This document shows, in pieces, positions 24,143 to 33,670 of a stretch of 64,000 nt of DNA. The stretch covers positions 19,120-83,119 of the forward strand of contig JACAFG010000002.1 in NCBI GenBank assembly GCA_019352195.1. The letters are read 5' to 3'. Source of the DNA: Candidatus Saccharimonadota bacterium. GTDB taxonomy: Bacteria > Patescibacteriota > Saccharimonadia > UBA4664. Under the pieces are notes generated by a model. It worked only from the letters and a program-made list of their open reading frames with translations. It did no database searches and was not told the origin of the DNA. The translations under genes were made by a program, and so were the position numbers. Positions within the stretch are counted from its first letter, which is position 1, and every line of letters starts with the position of its first letter.

Positions 24143-24453
24143 CACCCCAAAGATTGCGGGCAATCCGGTCCGTAATTCGTTTTTCTCGTACATCACGAAG
24201 GATGTGACCGGAAGTGGCTCGCTCGCCCAAATGCTCCATGTGCGGTACCGTGCTTGATCAAGCATCACGGCAACGATTGAGGCCGCTGGTGTATTTAGCG
24301 GTCGACAATTCAATCGCCTCCACGGTCCGTGCTGGCATGAAGTGGACCAAATCAATTGCACGAAAACATGACCGGCAAAGCCCTCGCACTGTAATGGTGC
24401 GGGGGTTCGCCTTTTGTTCGCATATATCAGATGGAGAGTAGTATAATTAGGGT

Positions 24454-26238
24454 ATGGATGAGCGGACAGAAATAAAGGAACGGCTGTCGATTACCGAGGT
24501 GGTGTCAGCTTATTTGCCGCTCAAGCAAGCCGGACGCAGCCTGAAAGCGCCGTGCCCGTTTCATCAGGAAAAGTCAGCTAGCTTCATGGTTAATCCCGAG
24601 CGGGGAATTTATCACTGCTTCGGGTGCAATGAGGGCGGAGATATCTTTAGTTTTGTCATGAAGATGGAAGGGCTCAGTTTTCCTGAGGCGCTCGAAAAAT
24701 TGGCAAGACAGGCTGGAGTTGAGCTGAAAGCCAAGCGTCCGGAAGACACGGCGGCCTCGGCCAAGCGGGTGAGATTATATACCGCGCACGAGTTAGCGGT
24801 GCGGTACTTTCAGGCTTCGCTCGTCAAGAACCCTAAAGCCCTCGAATACATCATAAAAAAGCGCGGCCTGACACGTCAGACGGTGAAGGATTTTCAGATC
24901 GGTTATGCACCCGACTCGTGGAATGCACTAACTGATTTCTTGGCCAGTAAGGGTTATACATATTCTGAACTGTTGGAAGCGGGTTTGGCGGGTCAGAAAG
25001 AAGGACGTCAAACAGTTTACGACTTGTTTCGCGGGCGAATTATGTTTCCTATTACGGATCGCGACGGCCGCCCGATTGGCTTCACGGCGCGCGTACTCGA
25101 CGACAGTTTGCCGAAATATCTTAATACTCCCCAGACACCGCTGTATGATAAAAGTCGGGCTATTTTTGGACAGTTTTTGGCGCGAGATGCGATTCGGGCC
25201 AATGATGAAGTAGTGCTCGTAGAAGGCAATATGGACGTGGTGGCGAGCCATCAGGCCGATGTGAAGCAAGTGGTGGCGGCTAGCGGTACGGCGCTGACCT
25301 TGGACCAGCTGCGCACGCTTAGTAAACTGACCAAAAATATTAAGCTGGCCTTTGACACCGACCGCGCGGGTCTCGCCGCTACCGAACGCGCCATTGAGCT
25401 CGGGGGCCAGTTGGGTCTAACGCTGCGGATGGTGGTGATTGAGGGCGCTAAAGACGCCGATGAACTCATTAGTAAAGATGTGAGTGCTTGGTCGGCGGCC
25501 ATAGCTAATGCCAAGTATATTGTTGACTATTTATTTGACCGCTTTGCCACTGATTACGACCTTACTTCGGCGATTGGTAAGCGCCAGTACACCGATCGGC
25601 TAGCTATTACGTTGCGTCGCTTGGGCGATCCAGTGGAGCAAAACCATTATGTAAGGCGGCTGGCTGAAGCAACCGACACGAGCGAAGAAGCGATTCGCGC
25701 CAAAATGGAGCAAGCCCAGGAGCGGCCATCGTCGAGCCGCACACCAAAAACTGCGGTCACGTCAAACGCTGCTGGGTCGTTACCGGCAACGGGTGCTCCG
25801 GTACGTCTAACTAAGGCGCATAAAAATCGTAACCAGCGCGAAGACGAATTGTTGGCCATTTGTTTGTATGAGCCGCTGGCGCGGATTGCGCTGGAAGATC
25901 TCACTAGCGAGCATTTTAGCCGACCAGAGAGCCAAGAGCTGTACCTAATGCTGTCTGAGCACACGCACGATAATCCAGATCAAATAATTGGTGCGCTGGG
26001 TGACCCGGCCTATGGGTCGCAGTGCATTTTTTATGCGGAGCGCATGTTTGGCGGGTACGAACGGCGTGAATTGCCGGAGAAAGCTTTTAAATCAGCCGAC
26101 CGTTTGCAAGACGTGGTGGAAGAAGTCTGGCGCGAAGAAATTAACCGCGAGCTCGAAACAGCCGAGCGTGACGGTGACGAGGCGGCTTGGACCCGCCTGA
26201 TGACACGGTTAAACGCGATGAATCAGCGCAAAGCGTAG
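24454..26238 (+). CDS. dnaG: DNA primase
   Basis: CHC2 zinc finger (CPFHQEKSASF...HCFGCNEGGD), TOPRIM (VLVEGNMDV). 594 aa. Confidence 0.9.
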   Translation: MDERTEIKERLSITEVVSAYLPLKQAGRSLKAPCPFHQEKSASFMVNPERGIYHCFGCNEGGDIFSFVMKMEGLSFPEALEKLARQAGVELKAKRPEDTAASAKRVRLYTAHELAVRYFQASLVKNPKALEYIIKKRGLTRQTVKDFQIGYAPDSWNALTDFLASKGYTYSELLEAGLAGQKEGRQTVYDLFRGRIMFPITDRDGRPIGFTARVLDDSLPKYLNTPQTPLYDKSRAIFGQFLARDAIRANDEVVLVEGNMDVVASHQADVKQVVAASGTALTLDQLRTLSKLTKNIKLAFDTDRAGLAATERAIELGGQLGLTLRMVVIEGAKDADELISKDVSAWSAAIANAKYIVDYLFDRFATDYDLTSAIGKRQYTDRLAITLRRLGDPVEQNHYVRRLAEATDTSEEAIRAKMEQAQERPSSSRTPKTAVTSNAAGSLPATGAPVRLTKAHKNRNQREDELLAICLYEPLARIALEDLTSEHFSRPESQELYLMLSEHTHDNPDQIIGALGDPAYGSQCIFYAERMFGGYERRELPEKAFKSADRLQDVVEEVWREEINRELETAERDGDEAAWTRLMTRLNAMNQRKA

Positions 26239-26491
26239 ACATTTTTTGTCGGTGCTGGCCAAAGCTCCAACAGATTGACGAGCGGTAAATAATTAGGTAA
26301 GATAGGTTCATTGGGGCGGCATCGGCTGTGCTCCAGCAGACCACGGTTACGAGGCTTCGAACCGAATTGACGGCTGCAAACGTTACCCTCGCCCGAAATG
26401 TTAAATACATGTGCGACCCGATCCACACGAAGTCAGTCTAGCTGGCGGAGTGTTTTTGTGCGTAAATGTATGTAAATGCAGGAGAAGTATT

Positions 26492-27595
26492 TTGCCCAGA
26501 AAAGCTGTTGAAACCGAAGAAACTGCTGACCAAAGTAGCGTATCGCCCGAAGTTGCTCGCTTAATTGCCAAAGGCAAAGAGCAGGGTTACGTTACGCAGC
26601 AAGAAATTGCCTCTGTTTTGCCCGAAGCCGAAGAGAACCTCGAAGAGCTCGACGAGCTCTATGCGGCGTTGCTCGAGCAAGGTGTTGAAATCACCGACCA
26701 GAAAGATTCGCTCATCTGGGACAAAGAAGAAGAAGAAGCCGATACCGGCGATGACTATATAAAAGATATCGCCGACGACTCGGTACGATTGTACTTGCGC
26801 GAGATTGGTAAAATCCCGTTGCTTACTGGTGAACAGGAAGTGATGCTGGCCAAGCGCATTGAAGCGGGCGACAAGGGTGCCAAAGACGCCATGGCTGAGG
26901 CCAACATGCGTCTTGTGGTGTCGATTGCCAAAAAGTACATTGGCCGCGGCTTGGACTTGTTGGACTTAATCCAAGAAGGTAACACCGGCCTGCTCCGCGC
27001 TGTGGAGAAGTTTGACTATACCAAGGGCTACAAGTTCTCGACGTATGCCACCTGGTGGATTCGTCAGGCTATTACGCGCGCCATTGCCGACCAAGCTCGC
27101 ACCATCCGTATTCCCGTGCACATGGTTGAAACCATTAATAAGCTCATTCGTACCCAGCGCCGCTTGGTTCAGGAACTAGGCCGCGAACCGCTGCCGGAAG
27201 AAATTGCGGCCGAGATGGAAATGGATGTTGAGAAAGTTAATCACATCCTCAAGATCAAGCAGGACATCGTGTCGCTTGAGGCGCCGGTGGGCGAAGAGGA
27301 AGACTCTCAACTGGGCGACTTTATTGCCGACGAAGATAGTTTGACGCCGGAAGAAGCCGCCACGCACCAGTTGCTTAAAGAGCACGTCAATCAGGTGTTG
27401 GCTTTGCTGACGCCGCGCGAGCAAAAGATTTTGCGTATGCGATTTGGTCTCGAAGATGGCCGTAGTCACACGCTTGAAGAAGTTGGTCAGGAATTTGGCG
27501 TGACGCGCGAGCGCATTCGCCAGATTGAGGCTAAAGCTTTGGCGAAACTGCGTAAGCACCGCGAAAGCAAGAAACTCAAGGATTACCTGCGGTAA
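26492..27595 (+). CDS. rpoD: RNA polymerase sigma factor RpoD (sigma-70)
   Basis: Regions 1.2 to 4.2 ([55 protein letters not shown]). Six-frame ORF begins at 26411. TTG at 26492 follows a GGAGAAG RBS; start uncertain. Confidence 0.85.
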
Positions 27596-27603
27596 TCTGA
27601 GCG

Positions 27604-27649
27604 ATATAATATCAAAAAGAGCCCAGTGGGGCTCTTTTTGATATTATAT
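27604..27649. terminator. bidirectional intrinsic terminator (21-bp perfect palindrome with A- and T-tracts)
   Basis: atataatatcaaaaagagccc-agtg-gggctctttttgatattatat. Confidence 0.75.
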
Positions 27650-27668
27650 CTGTTAGGAGATCACGTAA

Positions 27669-28299
27669 GTGGGAAATGACGCATACAAATGGGTCCGTAA
27701 GAATGATGAGGAAATTATTCTCCGTTTTGCTGATCCAAGGATAATAAGGCCAGTTGAAAATCCAATTACTTTTTTATGGCTGGCTCGCCCGGCGCCGGTA
27801 AGACTGAATGGGCACGTTCATTGATCGTCAACCTCGCAAATGACAAAGAAGAACCGACAGAGTTTGTTCACATAGACCCTGACGAAATAAGAAAGCTATT
27901 TGATGGCTATAATGGCACAAATGTTTCGGAATTTACTCGAGCAACTAGTACTGCGGTAGGACGTATTCTTGATCGGACAAATCGTCTTGGACAAAACGTC
28001 ATTGTCGACGGGACCTTATCCAGGTATGATGCCGTGGCGAAAGACGTTGATTCTTATATAGGAAACATGGTCGGAGCACAGTAATTTTCTTTGTATACCA
28101 AAAGCCGGAATTAGCTTGGTATTTCACGAAGGCAAGGGCAGCTGACCCTGAAGACGGGCGCGTTGTTGATAAGCTGACATCGATTGCCGCATACGTGTAG
28201 TCTATCCAAAATGCCAACGCCTTAAAGCGTAAATACGGATCACATATACAACTTCATATCATTGAAAAAGATGCGTTGAATAGGGTAAAAAAGGTTTAA
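27669..28299 (+). pseudogene. zeta-toxin-like / AAA_33-type P-loop kinase gene, degraded by two frameshifts and one in-frame TAG
   Basis: GTG at 27669 after an aggaga RBS gives MGNDAYKWVRKNDEEIILRFADPRIIRPVENPITF. A T6 run at 27770..27775 shifts frame into MAGSPGAGKTEWARSLIV... (Walker A), continuing to 28084. Protein-like continuation lies in a third frame from 28087 (FFVYQKPELAWYFTKARAADPEDGRVVDKLTSIAAYV). An in-frame TAG at 28198 is followed by SIQNANALKRKYGSHIQLHIIEKDALNRVKKV, ending at 28299. Confidence 0.5.
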
Positions 28300-28316
28300 T
28301 TTTAATAAACACACTA

Positions 28317-28345
28317 TTGACAACTATGTTGAAAAAGTCTATAGT
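28317..28345 (+). promoter_or_regulatory. near-consensus sigma70 promoter (TTGACA, 17-nt spacer, TATAGT) for the small basic-protein gene
   Basis: TTGACAactatgttgaaaaagtcTATAGT. Confidence 0.6.
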
Positions 28346-28370
28346 ATTAATTAATTGGAGGAACTAATTA

Positions 28371-28544
28371 ATGTTTAATCTCTTGAAAAAAGATAAACCA
28401 AAAAAGAAGAACCTTCTGGAATTGCCAGCAGCTAAACAAAAGAAGAGTTACAAAGAAGCAGCCGATAGATCAATAGACATGCAAGTGGAGGTTGTGAACA
28501 AATATAAAAATGCGCTTGGCGAAAAAATCGAGCGTAATAGATAG
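28371..28544 (+). CDS. small lysine-rich basic protein (57 aa), unknown function
   Basis: Complete expression unit: promoter 28317..28345, GGAGG RBS (28357..28361), ATG, intrinsic terminator 28552..28573. MFNLLKKDKPKKKNLLELPAAKQKKSYKEAADRSIDMQVEVVNKYKNALGEKIERNR. Confidence 0.5.
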   Translation: MFNLLKKDKPKKKNLLELPAAKQKKSYKEAADRSIDMQVEVVNKYKNALGEKIERNR

Positions 28545-28551
28545 CTAAACT

Positions 28552-28573
28552 AGAGTCCTACGGGGCTCTTTTT
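28552..28573 (+). terminator. intrinsic terminator after the small basic-protein gene
   Basis: agagtcc-tacg-gggctct (one G.U) followed by ttttg. Confidence 0.6.
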
Positions 28574-28648
28574 GAATCAAAAACCAATCTGTTTCAGGTT
28601 GTGCTTCATGGCTACGCGATCTACGATAGAACCAACAAGAGAGTGCGA

Positions 28649-30043
28649 ATGGAACGTGAACTAACTGAGAAATGTGCCGTGTTTGGTGCGCTCACGACGA
28701 GCCGCTATGCTACGCGTCTGAGGTATTATGGACTGTTTGCACTGCAGCATCGCGGTCAGGAGAGCTCAGGAATTGCGAGCTCAATTGAAGGCGGCTTGAA
28801 GCGCCACGCCGGGGAAGGCCTGGTAGCGCATGTGTACCGCGCCGAAGATTTGGACGATCTGAAAAGCAGTTTAGCGATTGGTCATAATAGATATGCGACT
28901 TCTGGCGGTAATCCTGGTGACCAAGTACAGCCAATTGTGGACTCTACCCTTGGATTTGCGTTTGCCCACAACGGAAATTTGCCAGAAACCGTGAAGCTGG
29001 AGAAGTTTCTATCGGAGCACGGTATTCGTCATGATGATGTTAGTGATTCGCGCATGATGGCGCTAGCCATTGGATGTTACATGAGTGAGGGTAATAGCCT
29101 AACGGCAGCGATAGAACTGGCATGGCCCTTATTTACCGGCGCTTTTTTATGTGTCGCCATGACTGAAGATACGATAGCTGGGTTTAGGGACGCTTACGGC
29201 ATCCGGCCCTTGTCGTTAGGTAAGCTTGATGATGGATACGCCATTGCTTCGGAGACGTGCGCCTTTGATACCGTAGGGGCGGCGTTCTTGCGCGATATTA
29301 AGCCCGGCGAGCTCGTGACAGTGACGGCGCAAGGGGTGAAGTATAAGCAAGTGGTAGTCTCGCCGCGGACGGCGCTCGACGTGTTTGAATATGTTTATTT
29401 TGCTCGTCCTGACAGCATGATCATGGGCCGGCGCGTAAACGAGGTTCGTCGCAAACTGGGCGAAAATTTGGCGCGTGAATTCAAAATTGAAGCTGATGTG
29501 GTGGTGCCGGTGCCCGATTCAGCGATTCCGGCGGCCCTTGGCTACGCGGCGGCGACGGGGATACGGTTTGACCATGGCTTCATCAAAAATCGGTATATTC
29601 ACCGGACGTTTATTAAGCCAACCCAGGAAATGCGTGAGTGTGATGTTAAAACCAAGCTCAATCCGGTGCCTGAGGCGGTGATGGGTAAGCGGGTGATTGT
29701 GATCGATGACTCAATTGTGCGCGGTACGACCACGGCGCAGATCGTCGATATGCTTTATGGCGCGGGTGCTACCCAGGTGCACGTGCTCGTGAGCTCGCCG
29801 CCAGTTAAGTTTCCCGATTTTTACGGTATTAATACACCCGATCCGCGCGAACTTATTGCCTCATATATGACTGAGGACGAAATCCGCGATCAAATGGGGG
29901 CAGGTTCACTCGGGTATTTGTCGATGGATGGAATGATTTCAGCCACCGGCTGGCCCAAAAATAAGCTCAATACCAGTAGTTTTGACGGTGAATATCCGAT
30001 TGATATTGGTGACCGGGCTCGGGTCATTTTACGCTCCCGCTAG
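28649..30043 (+). CDS. purF: amidophosphoribosyltransferase
   Basis: Ntn Cys in (M)ERELTEKCAVFGAL and PRTase motif VIVIDDSIVRGTT. Six-frame ORF begins at 28601 (GTG). ATG 28649 gives a short propeptide before Cys. Confidence 0.85.
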   Translation: MERELTEKCAVFGALTTSRYATRLRYYGLFALQHRGQESSGIASSIEGGLKRHAGEGLVAHVYRAEDLDDLKSSLAIGHNRYATSGGNPGDQVQPIVDSTLGFAFAHNGNLPETVKLEKFLSEHGIRHDDVSDSRMMALAIGCYMSEGNSLTAAIELAWPLFTGAFLCVAMTEDTIAGFRDAYGIRPLSLGKLDDGYAIASETCAFDTVGAAFLRDIKPGELVTVTAQGVKYKQVVVSPRTALDVFEYVYFARPDSMIMGRRVNEVRRKLGENLAREFKIEADVVVPVPDSAIPAALGYAAATGIRFDHGFIKNRYIHRTFIKPTQEMRECDVKTKLNPVPEAVMGKRVIVIDDSIVRGTTTAQIVDMLYGAGATQVHVLVSSPPVKFPDFYGINTPDPRELIASYMTEDEIRDQMGAGSLGYLSMDGMISATGWPKNKLNTSSFDGEYPIDIGDRARVILRSR

Positions 30044-30126
30044 TGATTTTCTTTACTAATTTCTAACAAGCTATCATTCTTTCTTACAGCCGGCTTAGCG
30101 CCGGATGACCTCGAGATAGGACTAGC

Positions 30127-30978
30127 ATGATCGTGACTGATATCTCGCCTGCTCGGTGGGCGACGCTGATTGACGTTCTTGGCATGACCACCGCGCCGGA
30201 TCGTACGCGATTGGTTCAGATGCTTGAAGGAGACAAGCCTTTGGGCGTCATTGGGGCCGGCTCGGATAGCGGCCAACTGCTCCTCGTCCTCATGTCGATG
30301 CGCAAATACCGCGAACTCGTGCGTACCGCTGATGTCGACATTCCGCTGTTTGTGCCGGTATCACTGAGCGATCTGGCTCCCGAGGCGTTATCGCGGCTAG
30401 AAACGTTTGGCATGGTCGATGCCGACGGTAACCCGCGGTGCGATATTTCCACCGTAGAACTGGCCGGCTGGTTTCGTAACCGGACGTACGCCCGAGCGCG
30501 TAAGGACAACGACAATCTGGTCTTGCCGGAGAATTGTCCGGATACGTGGGCGCCGGCATCAGGGGTGTCGCGTGCTCATGTCGCAATGGCGGGTGATGTC
30601 GGGATGTGCCGTCACTCAACTCGCGATGTCCGTGCCATTGGCAACGTGTATAAGTGGTTCGACCTCGACCTCGTGCCGGTCGGGGGTTCGGTGTGGCGAC
30701 TGAGCCATAACCGCACGCTATGGCACTTCACCCGCTGCTCCCACGGTTGGTCGGTGCTGTGTGTGCCACATGCCTATTGGCCGGAGCCGCCTAGCAAGTG
30801 CAGCAATATTGGATCGCGTTGGTCTCGGAAGAATGGCACAGGCCGTTCTTCCGAGACCAATTGTCGTAATAAAGGTATAATTAAGATCTATGGCACAAGC
30901 AAAAGAGCGACTAGTACTAGTAGATGGGTCGGCGGTGTTTTACCGCGGCTATTACGCGATTCCGCATTTATCAAATAA
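30127..30978 (+). CDS. hypothetical protein in a GC-rich segment; the C-terminal part is probably not real because it overlaps the polA start by 89 nt
   Basis: The first roughly 140 aa are protein-like. The tail is Trp/Cys/Arg-rich and runs across the polA RBS and start. Confidence 0.3.
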   Translation: MIVTDISPARWATLIDVLGMTTAPDRTRLVQMLEGDKPLGVIGAGSDSGQLLLVLMSMRKYRELVRTADVDIPLFVPVSLSDLAPEALSRLETFGMVDADGNPRCDISTVELAGWFRNRTYARARKDNDNLVLPENCPDTWAPASGVSRAHVAMAGDVGMCRHSTRDVRAIGNVYKWFDLDLVPVGGSVWRLSHNRTLWHFTRCSHGWSVLCVPHAYWPEPPSKCSNIGSRWSRKNGTGRSSETNCRNKGIIKIYGTSKRATSTSRWVGGVLPRLLRDSAFIK

Positions 30979-33670
30979 AGACGGTTTGGCTACCAACGCG
31001 GTTTATGGGTTTACCACGATCTTTCTTAAAATGCTGCAAGATCTCAAGCCAAAGTACGTGATTGTAACGTGGGATAAGAGCGCAAAAACGTTTCGAAAAG
31101 ACATGTATGAGGGCTACAAAGCCACGCGTAAGCCGATGCCAGATGATTTACGAGAGCAGATCCCGCTGCTTAAGGAACTGGTTGAGGGGCTTAAACTGCC
31201 CTTTGTGGAGCTGGAAAACTTTGAAGCCGATGACATCATCGGAACGCTCGCGTATGAGGCTGAGAAGCGGGGCGATCTGGAGACAATCATTGTAACTGGC
31301 GACCTCGATGAGCTACAGCTCGTTGATGAGAACACGGTGGTGCGGATTGCCAAAACAGCGAGCGAGGCCATGAGCTACGACATTGCGGCCGTGAAGGATC
31401 GTTATAAGGTGACGCCGAAGCAGTTTATTGACGTCAAAGCTCTCAAAGGAGATGCCAGTGACAATATTCCGGGTGTGCCTGGAATTGGTGAAAAGGGCGC
31501 AGTCGATTTAATCGTTAAATACGGCTCGCTGGATGAAGTTTATCAGCACGTTGATGAGCAATCGAAAGGAGTGGCAAAGAAGCTCGCCGATGGCAAAGAA
31601 TTAGCTTACTTGAGCCAAAAACTCTCGACGATTGTGCTTGACGCGCCGGTAAAGTTAGATCTAGCGGCCGCCGAGATTGGCCAGTATGACAATGAGCATG
31701 TGGCCAAACTGTTTCACCGACTCGATTTTCGTAGTTTGCTGCCAAAATTGCCGCCGCAACTTGATCCGGCAACCGTGGAAGCGGCAGTTCAAAATCCGGC
31801 TGAGGGACCGCTAACGCTGTTTGGCGGTGATGCCCCCGTTAAGAGTCGTAAACATCTGGAAACGGCTAAATATGAGGCAATTACGACGACTGAACGGCTC
31901 GATTGGCTGGTCAAGCAATTAACCAACCTAGAGGTGTTCGCGTTTGATAGTGAAACGACCGGCGTTGATACCGAGACAGCCGAGCTGGTTGGATTATCAT
32001 TCGCCTGGAAGGAGACTGAGGCGTATTACGTCCCGGTAGCCCACAACGCGGGCGTGCAGCTTGGTTGCGAAGAGGTGATTGCTGCCTTAAAACCCGTATT
32101 TGAGGACGACAAAATTGGCAAAGTTGGCCACAATATCAAATTTGATATTAAGATGGTGGCTAAATACGGTGTTGACGTTGTTAATGTGGCGTTTGACACG
32201 ATGGTGGCCGCCTTCTTGCTGAACTCGCTGGGCCGATCGCAGTCGTTGGATGGTCTGGCCTATGACGAATTTGGTATTGAGATGATTCCGATTAGCGAAA
32301 TGATTGGATCCGGTAAAACCCAGACGACCTTTGACGCGGTTCTCATTGAGGACGCGACGACATACGCGGCGGAGGATGCCGACATCACGTGGCGATTATA
32401 TGAGGTCTTGAGTAAGCGCCTGTATTCTAAGGAGGCTCCCAATGACTATGGCTGGACGCTTGAGCGCCTAGCGCGAGAGATTGAATGGCCGGTAATTACG
32501 GTACTAGCCGATATGGAAAGAGCGGGTATCGAGCTAGATAGTGCAATGCTTGAGCGTTTTGGAAAGCGTCTGCGTGAACGTCTCAATGAGCTCAAAACGC
32601 AGATTTATGATGCTGCGGGTGAAGAGTTTAACTTGGGATCGCCAGCCCAGATGGCGCAAATATTGTATGGCCGGCTGGGATTGTCGACGGTGGGGCTGAA
32701 AAAAGGCAAAACGGGCTTTTCAACCGCGGCGGGCGAACTCGAAAAGCTTCGGGACGCCCACCCGATCGTGAATCTGATAATGGAAAACCGTGAGCTCGAT
32801 AAGTTGATGAGTACCTATGTGGAGGCGCTACCAGGTTTGGTGGCGGCCGATGGACGGATTCATACCAGCTTTAATCAGACTATCGCTCAAACGGGACGGC
32901 TCAGCTCAACGAACCCCAATTTGCAAAACATTCCGGTACGCACTCAACTTGGCCGAGAAATTCGCCAGGCGTTTGTGGCGCCGAAAGGCCGCGTGCTGGT
33001 GAGCGCCGATTACTCCCAGATTGAGCTCCGCGTAGCGGCGGCGCTGGCCAAAGATGAAGCTATGATCAAAACTTTTACCGATGGTATCGATTTGCACGCA
33101 CAAACGGCAGCCGAACTGTACCAGGTAGATTTGGAAGACGTCACCAAGGAGCAGCGATCAGCCAGTAAGACTATAAACTTTGGCGTGCTTTACGGTATGA
33201 GCGCGCATGGGCTGAGTGTAGCCACGGGGATGGACCGGGATCAGGCGCAGGCGTTCATTGATCGTTACTTTGAGGTACGGCCTAAGCTGGCGGCTTACAT
33301 TGAGGCTACCAAAAAATTTGCTTACGACAATCAATACACGGCAACAGTCTTTGGCCGTCGGCGGCCGTGTCCTGAAATTCGCAGCAGTGTGTATATGCTC
33401 AGGCAAGGCGCTGAACGTATGGCCGTAAACGTGCCTATCCAAGGTACGGCGGCTGATATCTATAAGCTAGCAATGATTCACTTAGCCGCCAAATTGGAAC
33501 CAGCCGATAAACTATTGCTGCAAATTCATGACGAACTGATTGTGGAGACCGATGAAGCGCGGGCCAATGATGTGGCCGAGCTCATGCGTATGGTGATGGA
33601 AAATGCGATTGATATTGGTGTGCCACTAGCGGTAGATACGGCAATTGGGACCAACTGGGGCGAGCTTTGA
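30890..33670 (+). CDS. polA: DNA polymerase I (5'-3' exonuclease, 3'-5' exonuclease and polymerase domains)
   Basis: LVLVDGSAVFYRGYYA, FAFDSETTG, KVGHNIKFD, motif A DYSQIELR, motif B and motif C (QIHDELIVE) all present. 926 aa. Confidence 0.95.
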   Translation: MAQAKERLVLVDGSAVFYRGYYAIPHLSNKDGLATNAVYGFTTIFLKMLQDLKPKYVIVTWDKSAKTFRKDMYEGYKATRKPMPDDLREQIPLLKELVEGLKLPFVELENFEADDIIGTLAYEAEKRGDLETIIVTGDLDELQLVDENTVVRIAKTASEAMSYDIAAVKDRYKVTPKQFIDVKALKGDASDNIPGVPGIGEKGAVDLIVKYGSLDEVYQHVDEQSKGVAKKLADGKELAYLSQKLSTIVLDAPVKLDLAAAEIGQYDNEHVAKLFHRLDFRSLLPKLPPQLDPATVEAAVQNPAEGPLTLFGGDAPVKSRKHLETAKYEAITTTERLDWLVKQLTNLEVFAFDSETTGVDTETAELVGLSFAWKETEAYYVPVAHNAGVQLGCEEVIAALKPVFEDDKIGKVGHNIKFDIKMVAKYGVDVVNVAFDTMVAAFLLNSLGRSQSLDGLAYDEFGIEMIPISEMIGSGKTQTTFDAVLIEDATTYAAEDADITWRLYEVLSKRLYSKEAPNDYGWTLERLAREIEWPVITVLADMERAGIELDSAMLERFGKRLRERLNELKTQIYDAAGEEFNLGSPAQMAQILYGRLGLSTVGLKKGKTGFSTAAGELEKLRDAHPIVNLIMENRELDKLMSTYVEALPGLVAADGRIHTSFNQTIAQTGRLSSTNPNLQNIPVRTQLGREIRQAFVAPKGRVLVSADYSQIELRVAAALAKDEAMIKTFTDGIDLHAQTAAELYQVDLEDVTKEQRSASKTINFGVLYGMSAHGLSVATGMDRDQAQAFIDRYFEVRPKLAAYIEATKKFAYDNQYTATVFGRRRPCPEIRSSVYMLRQGAERMAVNVPIQGTAADIYKLAMIHLAAKLEPADKLLLQIHDELIVETDEARANDVAELMRMVMENAIDIGVPLAVDTAIGTNWGEL

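Follow-up and report, generated by a model that had tools for sequence, protein, structure and literature searches.

Just past rpoD, a 64,000-nucleotide (nt) stretch of a Candidatus Saccharimonadota genome (contig JACAFG010000002.1; hereafter, the window) turns markedly AT rich, and an earlier note, made from the sequence alone, had seen in this islet the decaying remnant of a P-loop kinase gene. What kind of element does the islet represent, and how much of it is still intact? Our analysis makes it likely that the islet (27651-28575) is a horizontally acquired, reverse-order zeta-type toxin-antitoxin-like module in which the kinase gene is dead and the gene of its partner is still open. The module would be of a kind widespread in Patescibacteria (the Candidate Phyla Radiation [CPR]), in which a kinase of the zeta/PezT fold, ~235 amino acids (aa) long, is followed by a basic, single-helix partner of ~55 aa. 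The partner gene lies directly 3' of the kinase gene, overlapping it or within ~30 nt of it, and would be transcribed from a sigma-70-type promoter of its own, located within ~60 nt of the 3' end of the kinase coding sequence. In the window, such a module would have been inserted just past the rpoD terminator; its kinase gene has kept its length but is disabled by three frameshifts of the slippage type and by two nonsense mutations, and the partner has retained an open frame, a Shine-Dalgarno site, a terminator, and a predicted promoter. The broken kinase gene in itself is ordinary genome decay. The coordinates of all features are collected in Table 1.

A full-length kinase pseudogene of the zeta family

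The stitched product of the kinase gene matched the Pfam family Zeta_toxin (PF06414) with 111.8 bits (E = 3.7e-32; profile positions 13-188 of 199; cut-off, 22.3) and AAA_33 with 1.3e-11, and the earlier assignment to the zeta-toxin-like P-loop kinases is thus upheld. The only long open reading frame (ORF), at 27776-28084 (102 aa), alone scored 62.2 bits against Zeta_toxin, so the remaining frames must carry real homology of their own. A family hidden Markov model (HMM) was built from 120 homologues and run on every stop-to-stop segment of 27560-28420. It returned five collinear pieces in three frames that cover consecutive positions of the model, which excludes a chance match.

The anatomy of the gene differs in part from what had been proposed. 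Several reading frames and the in-frame TAG are indeed present, but the gene comprises ~235 codons, three frameshifts, and two stops rather than ~210 codons, two shifts, and one stop. The first shift lies at the T6 run, as originally suggested: adding one T there gives back ..ITFFMAGSPG.., the family consensus. At the TATATA repeat, insertion of TA is preferred, since deleting 2 nt closes the only gap relative to the family; loss of 1 nt would affect the frame in the same way. Beyond the A6 run, the reading KRFNFNKHTIDNYVEKVYSIN, stop, LEELINV, stop matches the family C terminus, so the gene does not end near 28300. With these three minimal repairs made and the stops masked, we obtained a 235-residue product that scored 251.8 bits (E, 3.5e-79) over HMM positions 9-235 of 236. 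The repaired gene measures 708 nt, which is the full family length, and its lesions are point and slippage mutations with no deletion among them. Because no length has been lost, we find no support for an ongoing deletion of the gene.

The residues shared throughout the family are also in place. An alignment of 13 sequences has 29 invariant columns, and the window gene retains all of them, including GSPGAGKTE, IDPD, DGT, and two Arg residues. The IDPDEIR motif aligns with IDGDSFR of PezT, which contains the catalytic Asp. Neither Asp of the motif varies within the family, and both are kept here; the second corresponds to D67 of zeta and D66 of PezT. We also considered a functional 102-aa product from 27776-28084 and rejected it: this ORF begins at the P loop and lacks the preceding strand and the N-terminal helices of the fold.

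Reality of the lesions

Two of the three shifts fall in homopolymers (T6 and A6) and the third in a TA repeat, sites that are error prone on some platforms, and one may therefore ask whether the organism has an intact gene, with both frameshifts and stops introduced by errors of sequencing or assembly. We regard this as very improbable. Five independent errors would have to fall within 710 nt, and two of these would have to be substitutions that happen to give stop codons, which is not credible. The window contains 38 homopolymer runs of at least 6 bases; nine of these lie within 17 kb of long, intact ORFs, where they cause no frameshift, and the genes of 594-926 aa on the flanks of the islet are intact. 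Furthermore, positions 24259-32084 are matched with 100% identity by a Logan contig from SRR11551193; that contig possibly derives from the same reads as the window assembly, yet it represents a separate assembly, since it differs from the window by a 101-bp insertion/deletion further upstream. The 102-aa and 57-aa products are recorded from two contigs.

The upstream difference deserves mention in its own right. Between positions 24258 and 24259 of the window, the Logan assembly (L081, 383-483) has 101 additional bases bounded by cttgat repeats, and the site falls in a small CxxC-rich ORF 5' of dnaG. A difference of 101 bases is not divisible by 3, so either the population is mixed or one assembly contains a version with a deletion or a frameshift.

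The slippery homopolymers at two of the shift sites could also bring to mind a kinase that is functional as it stands, through programmed frameshifting, stop-codon readthrough, or an alternative genetic code. This we consider practically negligible: two of the shifts move the frame back by one and the other moves it forward by one, and readthrough of both a TAG and a TAA would be required in addition. The adjoining genes translate normally under code 11, and none of ~80 intact homologues needs recoding at these positions.

A conserved partner gene downstream

In four genomic contexts that were fetched with their flanks, the kinase gene is followed by an ORF of 53-60 aa that either overlaps its stop codon or starts ~20 nt past it. 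These ORFs align with the 57-aa ORF of the window and have in common ..KK..FFELP..EKKKIIKKAV...N..Q..L..Y. With 80 further loci from metagenomes, 87 loci were available in total, of which the 81 with at least 200 nt past the kinase were counted. Every one of the 81 has a same-strand ORF of 40-70 aa, whose start lies -14 to +29 nt from the kinase stop, and the 74 distinct products of these loci form a single family. The window ORF scored 30.8 bits (E, 1e-11) against a partner HMM built without it. The earlier statement that an epsilon-like antitoxin partner is missing does not stand in substance, since a conserved one is open at 28371-28544; it is correct that there is no epsilon or PezA upstream, and the partner is not epsilon-like in sequence or position.

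A search of 1.84 billion representatives with the partner profile returned at least 364 clusters (50% identity, E <= 0.001), nearly all of 45-75 aa. AlphaFold predicts a disordered, basic N terminus and one long helix (residues 20-56; mean predicted local distance difference test score [pLDDT], 86). The 57-aa ORF and 44 family members had no match in Pfam, NCBIfam, or PADLOC. The label "ribosomal protein S21" that JGI attaches to one member was set aside, as the Pfam scan of the 44 members detected no Ribosomal_S21. In a few cases, the profile matched inside longer proteins of 120-239 aa (P0203, P0226, P0262, P0270, P0295, P0298, P0299, and P0301), which may be fusions or miscalled genes.

Two homologous loci carry a single in-frame stop in the kinase gene, TGA in L108 (2684-2686) and TAA in L130 (629-631), each with an intact partner ORF downstream. 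The TGA of L108 could reflect a lineage that recodes UGA instead of a nonsense mutation.

A candidate promoter inside the kinase gene

A predicted sigma-70-type promoter that would drive the partner gene lies within the 3' end of the kinase gene. It is built of TTGACA, a 17-nt spacer, and TATAGT, and 11 of its 12 hexamer positions match. Four sites as good as this one occur in the window, against 0.16 expected; two of the three others lie in intergenic gaps 5' of co-oriented ORFs, as judged from their positions in the ORF list. No promoter-like site was found 5' of the kinase gene in the window, in the interval between the terminator and the start codon.

The two hexamers coincide with codons for a conserved motif at the kinase C terminus, (I/V)-D-N-Y-x4-Y-(T/N/S), which reads IDNY....YS in the window. 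A match of at least 10/12 was present within the 90 nt 5' of the partner ATG in 51 of 76 loci, versus 0/76 and 2/76 in two control segments of the same kinase genes. Codon choice at the motif is skewed in the direction that preserves the hexamers: Asp is encoded by GAC in 77% of cases at the motif versus 31% in the background (p, 1.7e-12), Ile by ATT in 86% versus 47% (p, 2.4e-8), and Thr by ACT in 92% versus 32% (p, 1.6e-16). For Tyr, whose TAT contributes the third, least conserved position of the -10 hexamer, the difference was not significant (68% versus 67%). The bias persists in 43 representatives with less than 60% identity. Such synonymous preference shows that the nucleotides are constrained beyond the amino acids that they encode, and we predict that the site is a promoter for the partner gene, conserved across the family.

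Kinase family, fold, and known systems

The homologues of the kinase are "zeta toxin family" proteins of 230-246 aa from Parcubacteria, Moranbacteria, and metagenome contigs. No closer intact homologue was found, the best of 615 matches being only ~40-45% identical. The family profile, compared with PDB sequences, matched PezT (2P5T_B; E, 4e-8) as well as gonococcal zeta1, and the alignment with PezT matches Walker A, IDxDxxR, and (E/D)GT. The leading fold matches were zeta (1GVN_B, 19.7), PezT (2P5T_B, 18.8), gonococcal zeta1 (6EPG_B, 16.4), a polynucleotide kinase (4GP6_A, 15.5), and AvrRxo1 (4Z8Q_A, 15.0). The three top structural matches and the top sequence match are thus zeta toxins, with ~200 residues aligned versus ~150 for other kinases. 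By its sequence matches (PezT and zeta1) and its structure matches alike, the kinase genuinely belongs to the zeta family and has the zeta fold.

Its identity to zeta/PezT (PDB entries 1GVN and 2P5T; gonococcal zeta1, 6EPG) is nevertheless only ~15%, and its operon is neither epsilon-zeta nor PezAT, because no antitoxin lies upstream and the partner is unrelated. In epsilon-zeta and PezAT the antitoxin gene comes first, whereas the window kinase has no epsilon or PezA 5' of it: only 18 nt separate the end of the terminator (27650) from the GTG (27669), leaving no room for such a gene. The genes directly 5' of the kinase differ and are unrelated in the four homologous loci with called genes. 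The antitoxins of epsilon-zeta and PezAT are 90-158 aa long and form a three-helix bundle, in contrast to the downstream partner described here, which has ~55 aa, one predicted helix, and no sequence similarity to them. Transcription of the partner would also be uncoupled, apparently, through the promoter within the kinase gene. A 2023 survey of PezT/zeta homologues sought novel antitoxins among upstream genes only and reported "orphan" toxins (PMC10532202).

The gene order of the window module is shared with AvrRxo1:Arc1, in which a zeta-like nicotinamide adenine dinucleotide kinase toxin (PDB 4Z8Q) is paired with a downstream antitoxin/chaperone. In avrRxo1:arc1, the zeta-like toxin gene comes first with the small antitoxin gene immediately downstream, the GC content is below that of the host, and the flanks are variable; the toxin gene has often become a pseudogene, in every case with an intact arc1 behind it (PMC4938570). 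Other zeta toxins are, however, at least as close to the window kinase as AvrRxo1 is, and the partner was not found to carry the KExFD...(Y/L)ExxYY motif of Arc1.

A second parallel concerns transcription. The antitoxin promoters of mqsRA reportedly lie inside the toxin coding sequence. The toxin gene again comes first, and separate promoters provide the antitoxin with constitutive transcription of its own (PMC6918082). The proteins are unrelated to those of the module, MqsR being a ribonuclease and MqsA a zinc/helix-turn-helix DNA-binding antitoxin, and the promoter in our case, unlike those of mqsRA, is deduced only from sequence conservation.

In the literature on zeta toxins in combination with CPR or Patescibacteria, we found no account of a kinase-partner module. 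The arrangement of a kinase of the zeta fold, a single-helix partner of a new type downstream of it, and a candidate promoter within the kinase gene thus appears to be undescribed.

Origin of the islet

The islet has a GC content of 0.401, compared with a mean of 0.525 for the window. It is the lowest-GC stretch of 925 nt in the window (z = -4.3), and no other stretch of that length has a GC content of 0.44 or below, in agreement with the AT richness described earlier. In 200-nt windows, the GC content drops from ~0.52 to 0.29-0.43 between the rpoD stop codon (27595) and purF (28601). A low GC content is also usual for the kinase genes of the family (median, 0.36).

In the closest Saccharibacteria genomes, whose RpoD is 72-78% identical, the gene order is dnaG-rpoD-polA with a gap of 450-680 bp between rpoD and polA, and the islet is missing. 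No zeta or partner match was found beside rpoD among the fetched loci of 80 genomes, nor does the window hold a second copy of the kinase or the partner. The neighbors differ in each of four family contexts, and an IS110 transposase gene lies 1 kb away in one of them. The islet is probably foreign or mobile, in line with the mobile origin that the earlier note had proposed, and horizontal acquisition is the best reading of its low GC content, its absence from the nearest genomes, and the unrelated neighborhoods.

Among the individual neighborhoods, one intact module is located by genes for a TIR_2-domain protein and a large HEAT-repeat protein (L083, 4175-6702), and another is 1 kb from an IS110-family transposase gene (L085, 1018-1983). 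Such neighbors suggest that some copies may belong to defence islands or to mobile surroundings.

Toxin-antitoxin pair or cellular enzyme

How the pair might work can be outlined from its likeness to known systems. The kinase could act as a toxin in the manner of zeta/PezT or AvrRxo1, poisoning a sugar-nucleotide or nucleotide pool, and the small helix could be a direct inhibitor that binds and blocks it. The internal promoter would then keep the inhibitor in excess, as in mqsRA, and the window would represent a usual end state, in which the toxin is dead and the antitoxin remains.

The same pairing might instead consist of a normal enzyme of the cell, such as a housekeeping or a nucleotide/sugar-nucleotide kinase of Patescibacteria, together with a small subunit in a regulatory or substrate role, in which case the window would record the loss of a dispensable enzyme. 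The names on record for family members are compatible with this ("predicted ABC-type ATPase," "UDP-N-acetylglucosamine kinase," and "adenylylsulfate kinase-like"), as is the frequent location of the family amid housekeeping genes such as rpoB, bipA, and mgsA-like genes, and the module is not among the PADLOC defence models. We nonetheless consider this explanation unlikely. The best matches of the kinase, structural and sequence alike, are to bona fide zeta toxins over ~200 residues; the neighborhood is different each time, with one copy by an IS110 transposase gene; and the islet is low in GC relative to its host. Strict pairing with a tiny, overlapping gene and a promoter inside the upstream gene are typical of reverse-order toxin-antitoxin systems (PMC4938570 and PMC6918082). 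Finally, the kinase alone is disrupted here, and L108 and L130 likewise combine a kinase stop with an intact partner.

Several observations weigh against the reading of the islet as a toxin-antitoxin-like module with a retained antitoxin. The toxin role of the kinase and the neutralizing role of the partner are inferred. The promoter call, too, draws on sequence evidence, and the codon-bias test takes the loci as independent, which the 43 representatives correct in part. No similarity of the partner to epsilon, PezA, or Arc1 was detectable; compared with all PDB chains, its profile gave a best E of 1, with no epsilon, PezA, or Arc1 chain among the matches. The module is absent from PADLOC. The repaired kinase falls slightly under the range of 262-346 bits obtained for intact family members kept out of HMM building. 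The window partner is the most divergent of its family, as the leave-one-out scores of the others range from 32.7 to 74.5 bits, and it is altered at conserved residues (FF to LL, I to S, and N to I). Since both products score below their family ranges, both genes may be drifting. Moreover, at the density of the kinase gene (5 lesions per 710 nt), a length of 174 nt should carry ~1.2 lesions and would escape them altogether with a probability of ~0.29, so the open partner frame is weak evidence of selection.

The last of these points bears on whether the whole module is dead, the 57-aa ORF being a neutral leftover and the promoter-like site a fossil of the protein motif. A lesion-free partner frame has the above probability of ~0.29 at the lesion density of the kinase, and the partner scores under every leave-one-out member with conserved hydrophobic positions changed. 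These observations are to be set against the joint preservation of the promoter-like site (11/12), of GGAGG at a distance of 9 nt from the start codon, and of both the open frame and the terminator, as well as the invariant Gln and the EKKK-type core that the partner retains; arc1 antitoxin genes likewise stay intact behind pseudogenized avrRxo1 toxin genes (PMC4938570). Death of the entire module is a distinct possibility, which we hold to be somewhat doubtful.

Edges and surroundings of the islet

The left edge of the islet is formed by the rpoD terminator, an unusually long palindrome (-38 kcal/mol; z, -9.8) that could stop transcription in both directions. Part of it recurs in direct orientation in the terminator hairpin at the right edge, 3' of the partner gene: the two 24-nt copies have the same base at 20 of 24 positions, including 14 nt that are exact (GGGGCTCTTTTTGA). 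No third copy was found in the 64 kb, where 0.01 would be expected by chance. The flanking repeats may have been left by the insertion or may reflect duplication of the terminator. An Rfam scan of 27400-28800 gave subthreshold hairpin look-alikes on the terminator palindrome and nothing else.

Beyond the islet, the window continues with purF and a GC-rich stretch (0.57-0.62) at 28601-30889, which likewise lie in the gap between rpoD and polA. The stretch includes a 283-aa ORF that has no Pfam match and overlaps the start of polA. A lone purF also seems unexpected in this lineage. The whole 3.3 kb between rpoD and polA may be lineage specific.

Table 1. Features of the islet and its edges (window coordinates)
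Feature	Coordinates	Strand	Remarks
rpoD terminator, left islet edge	27603..27650	+	Perfect palindrome; 22-nt arms, 100% complementary; 4-nt loop
Terminator-hairpin direct repeat, left copy	27618..27641	+	24 nt, AGAGCCCAGTGGGGCTCTTTTTGA; 83% identical to 28552-28575
Shine-Dalgarno site of kinase gene	27654..27658	+	AGGAG, 10 nt 5' of GTG start; read from sequence
Zeta_toxin-family kinase pseudogene	27669..28378	+	Full length, ~235 codons; frames 0, 2, 1, 2; 3 frameshifts, 2 in-frame stops
HMM piece, frame 0	27675-27776		HMM positions 9-42
HMM piece, frame 2	27770-28057		HMM positions 41-134
Frameshift 1, T6 run	27770..27775	+	Inferred ancestor T7; one T lost
Walker A/P loop, GSPGAGKT	27782..27805	+	Invariant in family; MAGSPGAGKT at 27776-27805
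IDPDEIR motif	27875..27895	+	Aligned with PezT IDGDSFR
Frameshift 2, TATATA	28055..28060	+	Inferred TA insertion
HMM piece, frame 1	28063-28194		HMM positions 136-177
In-frame stop 1	28198..28200	+	TAG
HMM piece, frame 1	28207-28293		HMM positions 182-210
Frameshift 3, A6 run	28287..28292	+	Inferred ancestor A5; one A gained
HMM piece, frame 2	28292-28345		HMM positions 210-227
Candidate sigma-70-type promoter	28317..28345	+	TTGACA-17 nt-TATAGT, 11/12; predicted to drive partner gene
In-frame stop 2	28352..28354	+	TAA
Shine-Dalgarno site of partner gene	28357..28361	+	GGAGG, 9 nt 5' of ATG; read from sequence
Partner gene	28371..28544	+	57 aa, open; 8-nt overlap with kinase end (ATGTTTAA); NCBI hypothetical protein HJC99_01595
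Terminator hairpin and T run 3' of partner gene	28552..28575	+	Right repeat copy, right islet edge

Implications

For annotation, 27669-28378 would be better marked as one pseudogene than as a 102-aa "Zeta_toxin" gene, with HJC99_01595 linked to the pseudogene. The family, for its part, represents a patescibacterial branch of zeta kinases whose obligate partner is encoded downstream and belongs to a new type of sequence; zeta/PezT homologues with no antitoxin gene upstream have been called "orphan" toxins, and their partners were sought among upstream genes only (PMC10532202).

We propose tentatively, and regard as just short of an even call, that the patescibacterial ~235-aa kinases and their ~55-aa partners constitute an undescribed, widespread reverse-order zeta-type toxin-antitoxin family, with a new class of zeta inhibitor and a selected promoter inside the toxin gene. 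If so, the conserved C-terminal IDNY...YT motif would be partly a promoter in disguise, and the window would hold an orphaned antitoxin gene that may still be expressed and could, for instance, guard the cell against addiction to newly arriving copies of the module. If the embedded promoter holds, it would be an example of dual coding, in which a protein motif and a promoter are written on the same bases. The toxin-antitoxin content of ultra-small, host-dependent bacteria is poorly charted; should the pair be a toxin-antitoxin system, it would add a new class of zeta inhibitor and provide a marker of mobile modules for these organisms.

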